Below are positions 123 to 62,920 of a stretch of 64,000 bases of DNA, piece after piece. Where the stretch lies: contig JBBDUI010000002.1 of assembly GCA_040903985.1 (NCBI GenBank), positions 671,469-735,468 of the forward strand. Reading direction: 5' to 3'. Each line of letters opens with the position of its first letter. Position 1 is the first letter of the stretch. This stretch comes from Candidatus Saccharimonadales bacterium. GTDB lineage: Bacteria > Patescibacteriota > Saccharimonadia > QS-5-54-17. Below the pieces are notes generated by a model. It was not told the origin of the DNA. It did no database searches and saw only the letters and a list, made by a program, of their open reading frames with translations. Position numbers and translations under genes: made by a program.

Positions 123-139
123 GAAGAAAATGGGTGCTG

Positions 140-900
140 GGGCGCGCGAAAGTTAAAATAAAGGCAAAGAAAAAACTTGAGACGTACACCGTGATCGGTG
201 GCGAAGGGTGACCTTCGCGTCTCAAGTTTGGCGTAAGGGTAGGACAGGTGGGGCAGCCGACGTGCACAGCTACGGTTACGGACACCGCGCGTACTAGAAC
301 GGCCGCCCCACCGGGGCAGATGGAGCGTGGCTGGAGCACACAAAAGACCGGGCGGCCTAGTATGCGGATAGCTACGGTCACCTGCCTACCGCCCACTAGG
401 GGCGGTCCTAGCTCGTCGTCCTCAGTAGCGGACACCCGGGGTGAAGGTGTCCGCTGCATAGGAGCGCCGAGCGCCGAGCCGAGGCAGATATCACCTCAGT
501 TCGGACAGTTTACCAAGAGCTTACGCCCATACTAGAGGGGCGTACCGCTGCACAAACGGTAGACGCGTGTGGCGTCCTAGCTCCTGGTTAGGTCCGGATG
601 TTGGGTATGGAAAGTGCGGGCCGCCCCACTACCTTCCGATTCGAACCTATCCGACTCTCTGAGGGTAACGACTTTCAACAGGTCACTCGGATCACGAGCT
701 TCTGCCGTCGGTACGTCGCCCCCCTACTCAGTCGGGTGCACTTTAACTATAAAGGTACTACTAAGTAATCCCGGGCAATTGGTGGATTACTGGCTATATA
801 TAATAGATGATTTGTCGGTCGTCTGGCAAGTTCAAAATCGAGACTGTGCGAATTGGCAGTCCCCGAGAGCTGTGTGACCGGTCTACAAGGGGCAGCTGAC
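140..900 (+). ncRNA. Candidate large structured non-coding RNA of unknown identity, in an ORF-free, G-rich region
   Basis: There is no credible ORF; only short ORFs with non-protein-like composition occur. GC is locally elevated, and multiple perfect hairpins are present: cttgagacg...cgtctcaag enclosing cgaagg-GTGA-ccttcg (GNRA loop), and gcggacacc-cggggtgaa-ggtgtccgc. A terminator-like palindrome lies immediately upstream. The identity is not established. Confidence 0.2.
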
Positions 901-917
901 GTGCTATCATAAGCATA

Positions 918-1922
918 ATGCAGCTAGCAAAAACCGTGAAAATCACTACGATCGGAGCCGCCGTCCAGGATGTATTCCTTATGGGTGAGGTGTTACGCGC
1001 CCGGCGGGACGTCAGGACCCATGATTTTGTCGAACAGTTTCCCTTGGGGGCCAAGCTAGAACTGGATAAGGTCATCTTTGACACCGGGGGTGGGGCCACA
1101 AATGCAGCCGTCACATTCGCCCGACATGGTTTTGAGACTCAATTTTTAGGTAAGATTGGCGATGACCCGGCTGGAGCGCACATTCTTCAGGACTTGCAGC
1201 GGGAGGGGGTGAAGACCGGTCGGATAAAGTGTGACTTAGATGGCACGACCGGCTACTCGACGTTACTATTGGCCCCGCGCGGAGAACGGACAGTGTTGGT
1301 TTACCGCGGTGTATCACAAGAGCTCAGTGCGGATGATTTCGATAACTTCGCTCGACTGAAGACCGATTGGCTATACGTCTCATCACTGAGCGGTAACTTC
1401 CCACTACTAGAGGCAATCGTGGCCTTTGCACAGAAGAGTGATGTCAAGCTAGCTATTAACCCAGGTTCAGCCGAATTAAAGCAGGCTGCGCGGCTGAAGA
1501 AGCTACTACCGAACTTCGCCGTAGTGAGTCTGAACAAGGAAGAGGCCGGTGAGTTGAGTGAGGCAAAGACGAGCGCACAACGGGCAGCAGATATCGCTCG
1601 TCTTGCCGACATAGCAGTGGTGACCGACGGAGCTAAGGGCTCGGCTGCTAGTGACGGGACGTCGATCTATCAAGCCGGACTGTACGAGGACACTCCAGTG
1701 TTAGATCGGACCGGAGCGGGGGACGCCTTTACCTCCGGTTTTGTGGCTAGCATCGCTCGTGGTACTGACATTCCGACCGCCCTCACCTTTGCCAGTGCTA
1801 ACTCTACCTCTGTCGTCGGGCAGATCGGAGCGAAAGCTGGAATTCTGACGGCTACGGCCAAGTACAAGAAGATGGAGATTAGAGAAACCAAGATTAATAC
1901 TCAGAAGGCCCCCGATGCTTAG
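918..1922 (+). CDS. pfkB-family carbohydrate/ribokinase-like kinase
   Basis: 334-aa ORF with a pfkB signature near the C-terminus (DRTGAGDAFTSGFV) and an N-terminal glycine-rich sugar-binding region. Confidence 0.8.
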   Translation: MQLAKTVKITTIGAAVQDVFLMGEVLRARRDVRTHDFVEQFPLGAKLELDKVIFDTGGGATNAAVTFARHGFETQFLGKIGDDPAGAHILQDLQREGVKTGRIKCDLDGTTGYSTLLLAPRGERTVLVYRGVSQELSADDFDNFARLKTDWLYVSSLSGNFPLLEAIVAFAQKSDVKLAINPGSAELKQAARLKKLLPNFAVVSLNKEEAGELSEAKTSAQRAADIARLADIAVVTDGAKGSAASDGTSIYQAGLYEDTPVLDRTGAGDAFTSGFVASIARGTDIPTALTFASANSTSVVGQIGAKAGILTATAKYKKMEIRETKINTQKAPDA

Positions 1923-3156
1923 TCGTCTCTTACTCGCTAAACAGCCGATGTTCGATCGTACCATCACTCAACTGGAGGCTCAGACTCATAACCGTTCGAT
2001 CGATGCGGCGCTAGTAGCCGAGCTGCTGCATACGGCACATGCTAAGATGCGCGTCCTGAAGCTGGATCCGGCCGATACCACCGGACCTGAGCTATATCGC
2101 ACTTTAGTTAACACCGTAGCTACTCATGACGAACATCTGGCGCGGGAGCTGGGCGGTGTAAATACTAGTGATATCCGCGAGATGGTGCCCTTAATAGTTA
2201 AGCGCATCGAGCAGCTTGATATACCACGGGATGGCTGGTTCTTAAAGCATGAAGTAGCGGAGCAGATGCTACTTCGTATGCCGCCTAAGACAATCATGGC
2301 TAAGCTAGGCTATACCAGCGCTAAGCAGATGATGAAGGAGGAGAATCTGTATGAGATTTACGGTGCTTTGCGATTTGCTGAGAAGGCCGATTGGCTGAAT
2401 GAGTACAACCAACAGTATGAGACCTTAACGGCGTCTGACTTCGAACCACGCCGGATCGAGGTGGTGCAGTTCGATGCGGATAAGTGGGGAGATATAGCCT
2501 CCCATTTCATCGAGAAAAAACTGCACAACATCACTCATCTTAAAGAACTGGGAGTGATCATGACCATGCCGGTACTCGGTTCACAGCCGATGCCAGGCAT
2601 TACGCTCAAGGTAATGCCCCTTATTCTACACTACTTTAATGAGATTCGACTCTATTCAGCTTTCTTCAAATTAATGCGCGAAAAGAAAAATTTCGGCGAG
2701 ATCTTCGTCAACACACTGATAGCAGACCCTTCGCCGGTTGAGGTTACTCAAGGTGAATTTATCCACTGGCGGGTAATCCAACGCTATTTCGGTAAGCTCA
2801 AAGACGAGTATCATCCAGAGATGTTCGAGCCACACGTTCAGCCCGAGGATCTGCACTGGCGAAAAGCCGAGGATATTCTCTATGAGGTCGACCCCGAGCT
2901 CGAGTTTTGGCGAGAGCTCGACTACGTCGGGTTGTTTATGAATGATGACGAGCCGGTAACCTTCAACCTAATGGATGTCTCACTCAGCTATTCAAATCAG
3001 TTAGAGTTTGAAGACCGCTACCTGTATCACTTCCGGGAGTCGTTGTGGAACGAGGTGTTTGTGCGTTATCTAGGGCAGAAGAATCTCGAAGATCGTATCC
3101 TTAAACGCCTCGACAACGCCCTGATCGCGCCAGAGACGATTACCGACTTCAAGTAA
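1915..3156 (+). CDS. hypothetical protein (413 aa), translationally coupled to the upstream kinase
   Basis: Long intact ORF that overlaps the kinase stop by 8 nt. I recognise no domain in it. Confidence 0.55.
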   Translation: MLSRLLLAKQPMFDRTITQLEAQTHNRSIDAALVAELLHTAHAKMRVLKLDPADTTGPELYRTLVNTVATHDEHLARELGGVNTSDIREMVPLIVKRIEQLDIPRDGWFLKHEVAEQMLLRMPPKTIMAKLGYTSAKQMMKEENLYEIYGALRFAEKADWLNEYNQQYETLTASDFEPRRIEVVQFDADKWGDIASHFIEKKLHNITHLKELGVIMTMPVLGSQPMPGITLKVMPLILHYFNEIRLYSAFFKLMREKKNFGEIFVNTLIADPSPVEVTQGEFIHWRVIQRYFGKLKDEYHPEMFEPHVQPEDLHWRKAEDILYEVDPELEFWRELDYVGLFMNDDEPVTFNLMDVSLSYSNQLEFEDRYLYHFRESLWNEVFVRYLGQKNLEDRILKRLDNALIAPETITDFK

Positions 3157-3251: not shown

Positions 3252-5213
3252 ATGCAGAAATTTAAGCTAGCTTCGGACTATCAACCGACCGGGGATCAAC
3301 CGGCGGCTATAGAACAGCTCAACACCGGCGTATCCCGCGGTGATACTGAGCAGACCCTGCTTGGTGTAACCGGTAGCGGTAAGACCTTTACCATGGCCAA
3401 CATCATTGCCGAGCAGCAACGTCCGACGTTGGTATTGAGTCACAACAAAACCTTAGCCGCCCAACTGTACGGTGAGTTTAAGCGCTTCTTCCCTGATAAT
3501 GCGGTGCACTATTTCATCAGTTACTTCGACTACTACCAGCCAGAGGCCTATATACCGCAGTCCGACACTTATGTCGAGAAAGATTCACAGATCAATGAGG
3601 AGATCGATCGACTGCGCCATGCTTCGACCAAGGCCTTGCTAGAGCGCAAGGATGTCATCATCATCGCTAGTGTCAGTTGTATCTACGGACTGGGGGCGGT
3701 CGATGATTACGCTTCACTAGCGATAAAACTGAAGCGGGGTGAGCTGCGCAAACGAGATAAGTTCTTACGTCATTTGACCGACATCCAGTATGAGCGAAAC
3801 GATATCGATTTCAAACGTGGCACCTTCCGCGCTAAAGGTGATATCGTCGATGTTTTTCCGATTGGTGACGAATCGGCCTTTCGGTTCGAGTTCTTCGGGG
3901 ACGAGATCGAGAACATTCGCCGCATCGACCCCTTAACTGGGGAGCTGGGCCAGAGTCTGGATACGGTGACGATCTTTCCGGGAAGTCACTTTGTCACACC
4001 GGAAAAGAAACTGAAAGCGGCGATGGGTAAGATCCGGACTGAGCTAAGTGAGCGCTTGCAACAACTGCAGGCCGACGGTAAGTTGCTCGAGGCCCAGCGG
4101 TTGGAACAGCGAACTAATTATGATCTAGAGATGATGGAAGAGACCGGTTTCGTTAAAGGAATCGAGAACTACTCTCGCTATTTAACTAATCGTGAGCCAG
4201 GTGAACAGCCAGCTACACTCATGGACTATTTTCCGGACGATTATTTAATGTTTATCGATGAGTCGCACATGACAGTGCCCCAAGTGAGGGGTATGTATAA
4301 TGGCGATCGGGCCCGGAAGGAGACGCTAGTTGAACACGGTTTTCGTCTGCCCAGTGCACTGGATAATCGACCGCTGACCTTTACGGAATTCGAACGCCAC
4401 ATGAACCAGACTATCTATGTTTCCGCTACGCCGGCCGAATTTGAACTGTCGCGCTCACAGCAGGTAGTGGAGCAGATCATTCGCCCTACCGGACTGATCG
4501 ATCCAGCCATCTCGATTCGACCTACGACGGGTCAGATCGATGATTTGATTGCCGAGGTGAGAGATACGGTGACTCAAGGACATCGGGTGCTGATTACGAC
4601 CCTGACTAAACGTATGGCGGAAGATTTAACCGAGTACCTGGCCGAGCTGGATATAAAGGTGCAGTATCTGCACTCCGAAGTCGATACGTTTGAGCGTAGT
4701 GATATCTTGCGCGATCTGCGGCTCGGCACTTACGACGTCTTAGTTGGCATTAATCTGTTACGTGAGGGACTCGATCTACCGGAAGTCGGTCTGGTAGCTA
4801 TCCTTGATGCCGATAAAGAAGGGTTTCTGCGTAGCGCTCAGGCACTGATTCAGACTGTCGGTCGCGCAGCTCGTCACGTCGAAGGTCGGGTAGTTATGTA
4901 TGCCGATAGGGTGACCGATTCGATGCAGCGTGCTATCGATGAGACCGACCGGCGGCGTGAGATCCAAGTAGCACATAATAAGCAGCATGGTATTACGCCC
5001 CAGGGTATCAAACGGGCGATCGAAGCTCGCATGCATGAAGAGGAGGCGGAGAGTGCGACCCCGAAAGTCGATGTTAAGAAGATTCCTAAGGGCGAGCATG
5101 CCCATGTGATCCGGGATCTTTCGGCTCAGATGAAGCTAGCCGCCGCTAACCTACAGTTTGAGGAAGCGGCCGAACTGCGAGACCTGATAGAGCAGATTAA
5201 AACCGCTCAGTAA
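3252..5213 (+). CDS. uvrB: excinuclease ABC subunit B (UvrB)
   Basis: 653-aa ORF with a Walker A motif (GVTGSGKTF), a helicase-like domain and a C-terminal UVR motif. The N-terminus ([10 protein letters not shown]) is typical of UvrB. Confidence 0.95.
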
Positions 5214-41460: not shown

Positions 41461-41547
41461 GCCGCGGTGGCGGAATTGGTAGACGCGCTAGGTTTAGGAC
41501 CTAGTGAGGTTACACTCGTGAGAGTTCGAGTCTCTCCCGCGGCACCA
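41461..41547 (+). tRNA. tRNA-Leu (anticodon TAG) with a long variable arm and encoded CCA
   Basis: The acceptor stems gccgcgg and ccgcggc pair. The D-arm GGTAGA, the anticodon loop ttTAGga and the T-arm GGTTCGAGTCT are present. A 19-nt variable stem-loop and a 3' CCA are present. Confidence 0.9.
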
Positions 41548-57279: not shown

Positions 57280-57284
57280 CATCA

Positions 57285-57608
57285 ATGGCAGCTGATACAC
57301 CTAACAAACAGCGCATTCGTATTAGGCTTAAAGCCTACGATCATAAGTTGATAGATCAGTCTGCTAAGCAGATTATCGAGACGGCACTACGGACCGGTGC
57401 GACGGTAGCCGGTCCAGTACCGCTGCCGACCGATCGTAGTAGTTACACGGTGATTAAGAGCCCGCACATCTTTAAAGATTCGCGCGAACAGTTCGAGATG
57501 CGCGTTCACAAACGTTTGATCGACATCACTGACCCGACAAACAAGACTATCGATTCATTGATGAGTCTAAGTTTGCCCGGCGGGGTCGACACCGAAATCA
57601 AGATGTAG
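57285..57608 (+). CDS. rpsJ: 30S ribosomal protein S10
   Basis: The sequence [18 protein letters not shown] is typical of S10. Confidence 0.95.
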
Positions 57609-57630
57609 TCTTAAGTTGTTTAAGTAAAAA

Positions 57631-57657
57631 GGAGAGCGCTAGCTCTCCTTTTTACTT
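57631..57657 (+). terminator. rho-independent terminator immediately after rpsJ
   Basis: The hairpin ggagagc-gcta-gctctcc is followed by tttttacttttc, with an A-run upstream. Confidence 0.7.
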
Positions 57658-57710
57658 TTCTGGCTAGTCCATGCTCGCATAATCGCCAGGTCTTTGCTTA
57701 AATAGGAGTA

Positions 57711-57977
57711 ATGAAAACGCCTAGTAGAGTTCAACCAAGTGAAGCGGACAGTGTCTACTTCTTAAAATTACTACTCTTCTTTATCTTGGGGGCTATCTGG
57801 CTCTACCTACCTTTCACCTCCGTCCCGCTTCCGATCGGTTTTGTGCTGGGAGTGCTGTTTGCCCGTCATGACCACTTCCAGGTGGATCGGAAAATCGAAT
57901 ATGCCATATTATTGGTAGCTGCTATCTTAAGTCTGGTAGCTCCGATAGGGATTGTACTCGACGCTACAGCTCTATGA
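57711..57977 (+). CDS. small two-TM membrane protein (88 aa) inserted between rpsJ and rplC
   Basis: Hydrophobic ORF; its stop overlaps the start of the downstream gene (ATGA). Confidence 0.5.
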   Translation: MKTPSRVQPSEADSVYFLKLLLFFILGAIWLYLPFTSVPLPIGFVLGVLFARHDHFQVDRKIEYAILLVAAILSLVAPIGIVLDATAL

Positions 57978-62309: not shown

Positions 62310-62582
62310 ATGAGTCGTTCACTGAAAAAGGGACCATATATAGATGAGCGCTTGCAGCGCAAGATTGAGGCGATGGATACGGGCGACCGTACCATTATTA
62401 AGACTTGGGCGCGAGCCAGTACCATTACGCCAGAGATGGTCGGTAAGACTATAGCCGTGCACAACGGTAAGGTCCACGTGCCGGTCTTTGTCAGTGAGAA
62501 CATGGTAGGTCACAAACTTGGTGAGTTCTCCCCTACGCGTAAATTTAAACGTCATGGCGGCAAACTCGCCAAGGGAGAGTAG
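62310..62582 (+). CDS. rpsS: 30S ribosomal protein S19
   Basis: The sequence [11 protein letters not shown]...HNGK is typical of S19. Confidence 0.95.
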
Positions 62583-62584
62583 TC

Positions 62585-62920
62585 GTGAAAGCTATTGCTA
62601 ACGGTCTCCGGGTTCCACCACGCAAGATGAATATGGTAGCTGCATTGGTGCGTAAGCGCGACGTGACGGACGCTTTAGTTATTCTGGACCATACCCCCCG
62701 TCGGGCCGCTCAGGCTTTACGTGAAGTTATCAAGAGTGCCGCCGCTAATGCCGAACACAACGATAAGGTCGACCCATCCAAGTTAGAGATCGCCGCTATA
62801 AACGTCGGTACCGGCGGTATGATTAAGCGGATGCGGCCCAATGCGCGTCTCAGCGTTCGTCCCTATCGTCACCGCCTAAGTAATGTAACCGTCTCACTGC
62901 AGACGAAAGGAGATAAGTAA
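62585..62920 (+). CDS. rplV: 50S ribosomal protein L22
   Basis: GTG start; L22 family and operon position. Confidence 0.9.
   Translation: MKAIANGLRVPPRKMNMVAALVRKRDVTDALVILDHTPRRAAQALREVIKSAAANAEHNDKVDPSKLEIAAINVGTGGMIKRMRPNARLSVRPYRHRLSNVTVSLQTKGDK

Follow-up and report, generated by a model that had tools for sequence, protein, structure and literature searches.

A candidate stand-alone structured RNA gene at the aldolase–kinase junction of Saccharimonadales

The aldolase–kinase gap and its predicted RNA gene

The window analysed here is a 64-kb stretch of a Candidatus Saccharimonadales genome (contig JBBDUI010000002.1, positions 671,469 to 735,468), and its longest gap poor in open reading frames (ORFs) lies at positions 49-917 (869 nt). 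The gap is flanked on the left by a class II fructose-bisphosphate aldolase gene, represented by its final 16 codons (EKIEMFGASGKAVLN*, stop at 47-49), and on the right by a PfkB-family sugar kinase gene with its ATG at 918. We conclude that the gap probably holds a stand-alone gene for a structured non-coding RNA of about 630 nt, located at about 794..166 on the minus strand and belonging to an uncatalogued family in a subclade of Saccharimonadales (Candidatus Saccharibacteria, candidate phyla radiation (CPR)).

At a guanine-cytosine (GC) content of 0.55, the gap ties with a 231-nt gap as the highest among the ORF-poor gaps, and 200-nt segments over 201-500 reach 0.64-0.665 compared with a mean of 0.511 for the window. 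The ORFs overlapping 136-900 are 30-125 amino acids (aa) long, of low complexity and mutually overlapping on both strands. From the absence of protein-like ORFs, the elevated GC content, the hairpins and the repeats, a sequence-only reading had proposed a large RNA at 136-900 upstream of the kinase. All of these features are present in 49-917 and the structured region is real, the fold of 136-900 beating dinucleotide shuffles on both strands (z = −5.2 on plus, −5.9 on minus). The placement does not stand: the functional unit, promoter included, occupies roughly 166-829 and is read on the minus strand, instead of 136-900 on the plus strand, and the RNA is no kinase leader. The RNA gene and the aldolase gene are transcribed towards each other, the RNA gene and the kinase gene away from each other. 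GC skew on the plus strand is positive at the left end of the gap, and the 'G-richness' of the gap is C-richness of the RNA strand. The features of the predicted gene, in the order of transcription, and the promoter of the kinase are as follows.

829..800, minus strand, σ70-like promoter: −35 TTGCCA (829..824), 18-nt spacer, −10 TATTAT (805..800), 10 of 12 consensus matches
794..166, minus strand, predicted RNA, from the putative start near 794 to the end of the U-tract at 166
791..754, minus strand, 5′ hairpin AGUAAUCC...GGGAUUACU, then a GUACC motif
590..513, minus strand, multi-branch junction with the closing stem ACCAGGAGCU / AGCUCUUGGU, which includes one G-U on the minus strand
457..429, minus strand, hairpin GCGGACACC-UUCACCCCG-GGUGUCCGC with a C-rich apical loop, previously noted as a 9-bp hairpin
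312..247, minus strand, Pa, a long GC-rich hairpin with a 13-bp base stem GGUGGGGCGGCCG / CGGCUGCCCCACC
246..230, minus strand, C/A-rich unpaired linker UGUCCUACCCUUACGCC
229..173, minus strand, 3′ three-way junction: closing stem AAACUUGAGACG/CGUCUCAAGUUU, hairpins CGAAGG-UCAC-CCUUCG and CACCG-AUCA-CGGUG
172..166, minus strand, U-tract (UUUUCUUU context) directly after the closing stem, putative intrinsic terminator
882..910, plus strand, kinase promoter TCTACA-17-TATCAT with an extended −10 TG (TG-n-TATCAT at 902-910), 7 nt before the ATG at 918

The most likely extent of the RNA gene, about 794..166 on the minus strand or about 629 nt, is set by the predicted promoter and terminator. Ten distinct elements, from the window and nine other Saccharimonadales contigs, lie at the aldolase/kinase junction and measure 310-691 nt; the related loci were gathered via the kinase by one genome scan, one metagenome scan and exact-protein look-ups. 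Minus-strand boxes of the form TTGnnn-17/18-TAnnnT occur in eight of the ten homologues, all eight with TTG at −35, and in the six that retain the 5′ hairpin the −10 box is positioned 6-9 nt upstream of it. At the other end, each insert viewed on the plus strand opens right after the aldolase stop with an A-run and then a long stem, which on the minus strand amounts to a stable stem followed by a U-tract, as in an intrinsic terminator; this arrangement of terminal stem and U-tract is found in all ten homologues (10/10). A scan for simple-hairpin terminators left the RNA terminator unlisted because its stem closes a three-way junction.

Two independent wobble tests favour the minus strand. In folds built from Watson-Crick pairs only and taken in the minus orientation, 1x1 mismatches within helices are G-U in 25 cases and A-C in 7, and in the Infernal alignment of the 3′ domain the paired cells comprise 246 Watson-Crick, 21 G-U and 2 A-C. 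The RNA at 166-794 on this strand folds with a minimum free energy (MFE) of −294.7 kcal/mol (z = −6.67), and its centroid is identical to the MFE structure.

On the opposite side of the RNA promoter, the kinase gene appears to be near-leaderless and to have its own promoter. TGnTATCAT is kept before the kinase ATG in loci L002, L046, L048, L051 and, as TGATATCAT, L001. A TATAAT-like box 7-10 nt before the start, with no Shine-Dalgarno sequence, is present at many window genes (also 14457, 17872, 32539, 3252 and 24414), and such starts suggest that leaderless or near-leaderless mRNAs are frequent in this organism.

The conserved 3′ domain and the modules upstream of it

All ten RNAs have in common a 3′ domain that consists of Pa, a G-poor C/A-rich linker, the three-way junction and the U-tract. 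The base stem of Pa spans 12-14 bp across the ten RNAs, the linker is G-poor in every homologue (for example CACCAACUU and CCAACCUCCACUC), and the junction comprises the closing stem, a GCGAAGG...CUUCGC hairpin and a second hairpin. The nested helix with a GNRA loop that the sequence-only reading had singled out is present, and it is this three-way-junction terminator. Its loop is UCAC on the RNA strand; the GNRA tetraloop was rejected as a conserved feature because it lies on the wrong strand and occurs in 2 of the 10 homologues.

Since full-family MAFFT alignments were structurally unreliable, single sequences or the closest pair were used to seed Infernal covariance models. The model seeded from L001 alone (R1) picked up, always on the minus strand and with E ≤ 6e-6, L052, L002, L045, L061, the window and a portion of L054, together with a marginal match to L046 (E = 0.92); searched against about 45 other loci and the rest of the window, it gave no match. 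A six-sequence model (R2) added full-length L054 (E = 2e-7) and L048 (E = 0.014). The window copy is matched by R1 at 164-312 on the minus strand with E = 1e-6 and by R2 with E = 1e-18, and neither model finds a second copy within the 64 kb.

In the six-sequence alignment, A8, 96.7% of cells are in standard pairs compared with 33-48% when the partners are slid, a percentage that is inflated somewhat by the fitting of A8 to the model structure, although the margin is still large. Changes on both sides of a pair are seen in 41 of 49 pairs, and the observed values were reached in none of 500 shuffles (0/500). The closing, or terminator, stem has double changes in 11/11 pairs and the inner hairpins in 6/8 and 5/6, while Pa helix 1 has them in 8/13 pairs with 100% of cells paired. 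The covariation among relatives that the sequence-only reading had named as a check is thus there to be seen.

Two further R2 matches were rejected. The one in L062 (E = 0.011) adjoins a tRNA and a fragment resembling transfer-messenger RNA (tmRNA) after the kinase gene. The 540-nt gap there (L062 3470-4009, minus strand) contains the tRNA at 3810-3882 and a GC-rich long hairpin, which is the weak R2 match; the tmRNA-like fragment, 104 nt at 3705-3808, adjoins the tRNA and scores 26 bits, below the gathering score. This gap may represent what is left of an integration site, or else an unusual tmRNA. The other match, in L049 (E = 0.35), is a 3′ hairpin and terminator after an apparent small minus-strand ORF. 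At L049 5284-5667 (minus strand), between an LDcluster4-family gene and uvrB, manual translation gives an apparent small hydrophobic ORF; downstream of it come a long hairpin (GGCUGGCUG/CAGCCGGCC), a linker rich in C and A, and a stem with a U-tract, an architecture resembling the 3′ domain of the RNA. Minus-strand genes of 58-59 aa are called in the matching neighbourhood of L051 and L058.

The 3′ domain is conserved throughout the family; the 5′ hairpin and a number of central modules are shared by some members only. The 5′ hairpin followed by GUAC(C/A)UU or GCACCUU is found in the window, L001, L052, L054, L002 and L045. The CCAGGAG/CUCCUGG stem that closes the multi-branch junction is kept in L001, L052, L061 (CCAAGGGC/GCCCUUGG) and L045 (CCAGGGAC/GUUCCUGG). 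In a rough alignment of the window with L045, this stem is retained with one double change, and the hairpin at 429-457 aligns to an L045 hairpin with the loop CAUACCCCAU through five double changes; similar C-loop hairpins occur in L001, L052, L061, L054 and L002. L001 and L052, the only pair that blastn can align (about 70% identity), share 123 predicted pairs over their full lengths, of which 18 are double-changed and none is broken. A central-domain model (R3) matches L061 (E = 4e-5) and, weakly, L045. Domains are gained and lost among the homologues, giving RNA lengths of 310-691 nt.

The repeats of the gap, as seen on the DNA, are listed below.

71-122, perfect AT-rich palindrome, 26+26 nt without spacer, centred on CGATCG and located between the stop of the aldolase gene and the terminator of the RNA
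173-184/218-229, inverted repeat, 12 bp, 100%, enclosing cgaagg-GTGA-ccttcg
247-259/300-312, inverted repeat
350-360 and 399-411, direct repeats gggcggcctag and ggggcggtcctag
419-436/446-463, inverted repeat containing gcggacacc/ggtgtccgc

The palindrome at 71-122, described earlier as terminator-like, is present and perfect, but it lies beyond the 3′ end of the RNA, is an element separate from it and has no U-tract on either side. It is possibly an aldolase terminator or a protein-binding site. An imperfect analogue is found in L045 only (AAATTTGCA...CGATCG...TGCAAATTT); the other homologues have none, and there the distance between the aldolase stop and the RNA terminator is 5-15 nt.

A further direct repeat, identical at 15 of 16 positions, joins 250-265 to 889-904 (GGGGCAGC(C/T)GACGTGC), with a chance expectation estimated at well under 0.05 matches per 1 kb. 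The first copy forms the 3′ arm of the Pa helix and the second lies just upstream of the kinase −10 box, so that the RNA would be complementary (16 bp, one G-U) to plus-strand transcripts covering 889-904. In L001 the RNA promoter fills the short stretch upstream of the kinase, leaving little room for a repeat like that at 889-904. The tetranucleotide CTAG, usually rare in bacteria, has six copies in the window RNA at 166-794 (for example at RNA positions 215, 260, 384, 396, 435 and 498), often as CUAGGAC or CUAGUA beside G/C-rich stems, and 2-3 copies in several homologues.

Insertion site and searches against known families

The distribution of the element follows the relatedness of the kinase. 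In distant loci, with kinases 40-55% identical to that of the window, 35 of 42 have an ORF of about 305 aa that ends at most 17 nt from the kinase start or overlaps it, and all four such ORFs checked encode class II aldolases (4/4). Closer relatives, with kinases about 62-72% identical, have an insert at the aldolase/kinase junction. The distances between the two genes are as follows.

L045, 922 nt
window, 869 nt
L052, 689 nt
L001, 684 nt
L054, 632 nt
L002, 617 nt
L058, 545 nt
L061, 544 nt
L048, 443 nt, class I aldolase upstream
L046, 378 nt
L056, 60 nt, no insert
L049, 48 nt, no insert

L062 and L063, with kinases 57-59% identical, also have no insert. The 496-nt gap of L038 was rejected as a family member, having a different gene context and no model match. 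Judged from these gene orders, the element is a lineage-specific insertion into what was once an operon junction; it has been inherited at one fixed site and lost in some relatives. In L048 (1026-2057), L056 (1445-2440) and L062 (1454-2497), the class II enzyme upstream of the kinase is replaced in the same place by a class I aldolase (PF00274), and L048 retains the RNA element after its class I aldolase. Directly downstream of the kinase, window 1915-3156 encodes a conserved protein of 413-415 aa without a Pfam domain, which occurs in nearly all related loci, RNA present or absent.

Searches for a known identity of the element were negative. Rfam 15 at gathering score returns only a tRNA at 41461 in the whole window. 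At E ≤ 10 on 1-1100, it returns only spurious microRNA-type matches on the palindrome at 71-122 and one match at 695-793 (E = 1.9), and at E ≤ 1 on eleven homologous loci it returns nothing within the element. The element thus matches no Rfam 15 family, among them RNase P, tmRNA, SRP, 6S, group I/II introns, OLE, GOLLD, ROOL, HEARO, raiA, 6C and RsaE. ARAGORN finds only tRNA-Leu at 41461-41547 in the window and neither tmRNA nor tRNA in the gap. The weak resemblance to RNase P and SRP noted by the sequence-only reading receives no support from the covariance-model searches, and an RNase P-like motif (GGAAAGUGCGGGC, plus strand) was rejected on the same ground. Two other ORF-poor gaps, in the translation-gene region at 57280-57973 (694 nt, GC 0.47) and 62310-62919 (610 nt, GC 0.52), likewise have no Rfam match at gathering score.

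No protein could be assigned to the gap either. Pfam searches with the four longest gap ORFs give nothing significant. Six-frame peptides of the ten homologues match each other only in the closest pair, in several frames and on both strands, with no frame-consistent conservation, and no gene is called inside the insert in any public contig spanning it. A pseudogene was rejected on the lack of a Pfam match and of frame-consistent similarity among homologues, a full BLASTX against all proteins not having been run. As to mobile elements, blastn in distant mode finds no match in phages and plasmids, self-blastn of 136-900 against the 64-kb window returns the self match only, and within the window there are neither the dispersed copies nor the terminal inverted repeats of repetitive extragenic palindromes (REP) or miniature inverted-repeat transposable elements (MITE). 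A group I/II intron was rejected because the element lies between genes rather than within one, its neighbours are intact and adjoin each other in relatives, and there is neither a Pfam ORF nor an Rfam intron match. A scan of viral contigs with the Pa-stem pattern gave four high-GC palindromes without a three-way junction, which are not family members. Full-text searches of the literature brought up no description of an RNA of this kind from Saccharibacteria or CPR bacteria. With homologues at hand, many compensatory changes, no Rfam match and no frameshifted gene that could be reconstructed, the earlier proposal of a large RNA outside the known families holds up.

C-rich loops, competing explanations and significance

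The unpaired positions of the RNA strand are 32% C and 11% G, and each of the ten RNAs has 2-4 hairpins with CCC(C) in the apical loop, such as UUCACCCCG in the window, UUGCCCC and CCUCCCCCG in L001 and UUCCCCUCCU in L046. Hairpin loops containing CCC number 28 of 103 in the ten RNAs compared with 12.6 ± 2.8 in dinucleotide shuffles (maximum 18, 40 shuffles), and C4 runs are unpaired in 22 of 31 cases compared with 11.6 ± 3.1; in plus-strand folds CCC occurs in 7 of 110 loops. The C-loops recur at the apex of Pa and in a hairpin 100-150 nt upstream of Pa. GGGG-type ribosome-binding regions, found at 6 of 40 window genes, make a pairing with these loops possible. The conserved internal loop YUGGGAG may instead pair with a CUCCC loop as a pseudoknot.

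These features can be assembled into a working model. Transcription would start at the σ70-type promoter facing away from the kinase, and the RNA would open with a protective 5′ hairpin, continue through a variable run of 6-10 hairpin or junction domains and end in the conserved 3′ domain, whose closing stem and U-tract would serve as intrinsic terminator. As the comparison of loci shows, the insertion split the aldolase–kinase operon junction, and the kinase now has its near-leaderless promoter. With low confidence, we propose a function in trans, in which the C-rich apical loops (CCCC/CCUCC) and the C/A-rich linker of the RNA could pair with G-rich or Shine-Dalgarno-like targets, as with the 6C and RsaE/RoxS small RNAs, or could titrate an RNA-binding protein. 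Pairing or protein binding via the C-rich loops is, by analogy, the best functional lead, and as the mechanism of the RNA it is a tentative and rather doubtful proposal. We lean somewhat towards the broader view of an undescribed RNA class of 0.3-0.7 kb, confined to one Saccharimonadales lineage with strongly reduced genomes, that combines a conserved 3′ domain with modular C-loop hairpins and would either regulate G-rich ribosome-binding sites in a multivalent manner or serve as decoy or scaffold for an RNA-binding protein.

The comparison with known systems is consistent with a new family. Like the ornate non-coding RNAs of bacteria (OLE, GOLLD, ROOL, HEARO and raiA), whose functions are poorly known at best, the element is hundreds of nucleotides long, ORF-free, GC-elevated, multi-domain and covarying, narrow in range and stand-alone. 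Unlike them, it varies widely in length through domain gain and loss and sits, with no phage or mobile association seen, at a fixed chromosomal site in a glycolysis/pentose-phosphate cluster, and it has no covariance-model match to any of them even at E ≤ 10. Protein-sequestering RNAs of the CsrB/RsmZ type have many hairpins with one loop motif, variable length and low conservation outside the motifs. The element likewise repeats a short loop motif, varies in length and is little conserved outside its motifs, but the motif is CCC(C) rather than GGA and the conserved 3′ domain has no counterpart there. Its stem, GC-containing and placed directly before a U-tract in ten homologues, resembles an intrinsic terminator, except that, instead of forming a simple hairpin, it closes a conserved three-way junction from which two inner hairpins branch (one of them GCGAAGG...CUUCGC). 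In the RsaE/RoxS RNAs of Firmicutes, C-rich loops are the working parts. Actinobacterial 6C RNA is described as pairing through C-rich loops with G-rich mRNA sites and without a chaperone (PMC6486639). The element shares with 6C and RsaE/RoxS the CCCC/UCCC apical loops and a Rho-independent terminator and has the C-rich loops that mark this group, whereas 6C and RsaE are about 60-110 nt long with two or three hairpins and the element is 310-691 nt long, some five to ten times their length, with 4-15 hairpins and no Rfam match.

Several observations weigh against a stand-alone RNA gene with a function in trans, in addition to the inflated pairing percentage of A8. Both RNA ends are predictions, 794 and 166 having been placed from the sequence, and L046 and L061 have no convincing promoter match. 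The primary sequence is poorly conserved, blastn detecting only L001 and L052, and the copies of the element differ in length, between 310 and 691 nt. In ornate RNAs with catalytic or assembly roles, such as OLE, GOLLD and ROOL, many nucleotides are usually invariant, and the element has far fewer. R3 did not retrieve the window copy, and for this reason we do not claim family-wide conservation of the central domain. The close relatives L049 and L056 have no element at the junction, implying that it is dispensable or has moved. Finally, the C-loop mechanism is drawn solely from enrichment statistics and analogy.

Some of these points would fit a cis-acting spacer or insulator, in which the transcript, or the terminator and hairpins, would block read-through from the aldolase gene and uncouple the kinase with no function in trans. 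Such a role, which we regard as unlikely, would agree with the position of the element exactly at the former operon junction, the terminator 5-15 nt from the aldolase stop in most homologues, the gain of a promoter by the kinase, the low sequence conservation and variable length, and the absence from two close relatives. A simple terminator would suffice for it, however, whereas an architecture of 310-690 nt, in which the 5′ hairpin and the junction stems are conserved and C-rich loops are enriched, is kept by compensatory changes along its full length. Moreover, the terminal stem has no U-tract after it on the plus strand and would make a poor aldolase terminator.

A plus-strand RNA, either a structured 3′ untranslated region of the aldolase mRNA or a 5′ leader or riboswitch-like element of the kinase as the sequence-only reading implied, is quite improbable. 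The flanking genes are on the plus strand, which itself folds well (z = −5.2) and has a GNRA loop, GUGA in the window and GUAA in L054. Against this, the asymmetry between G-U and A-C (21:2 and 25:7) is in favour of the minus strand, for which the promoter (8/10) and the stem with U-tract (10/10 homologues) are also oriented; read directly, the plus strand of the window has no terminator-like end; the GNRA loop is not conserved (2/10); and plus-strand matches of the covariance models are confined to the near-palindromic Pa stem, with E values near 1e-3 or weaker. A kinase leader or riboswitch in particular was rejected on these strand indicators and on the kinase −10 box, which at 7 nt from the ATG leaves no room for a leader.

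Least probable of all is a decaying protein gene or mobile element (insertion sequence, MITE, intron or prophage fragment) with incidental hairpins, since the patchy presence among close relatives, the 15/16 direct repeat (250-265 / 889-904) and a local GC content above the genome average are outweighed by the lack of a Pfam match or conserved reading frame, of Rfam intron or mobile-element RNA matches in the window and 11 related loci, of phage or plasmid similarity, of terminal inverted repeats and of a second copy in 64 kb, by occupation of the same site in ten genomes with kinases only about 62-72% identical to the window's, and by compensatory change that maintains structure, unlike neutral decay.

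The minus-strand RNA gene therefore remains our preferred reading, and the homologues would constitute a new family of stand-alone structured bacterial non-coding RNAs. Large structured RNAs are rare in bacteria, and OLE, GOLLD and ROOL proved to have unusual biology. To our knowledge, almost nothing is known of regulatory RNAs in CPR bacteria, Saccharibacteria included. Saccharibacteria are tiny symbionts and, like other CPR bacteria, have genomes smaller than 1 Mb; that a structured RNA of 0.6 kb has been kept in a genome of this size, together with a predicted promoter of its own, points to a real function. The family provides a defined candidate in an uncultivated lineage, with boundaries, a covariance model and one concrete hypothesis, that of the C-rich loops. 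It would also indicate that an RNA gene can split an ancestral aldolase–kinase operon, forcing the downstream gene to gain a promoter of its own.

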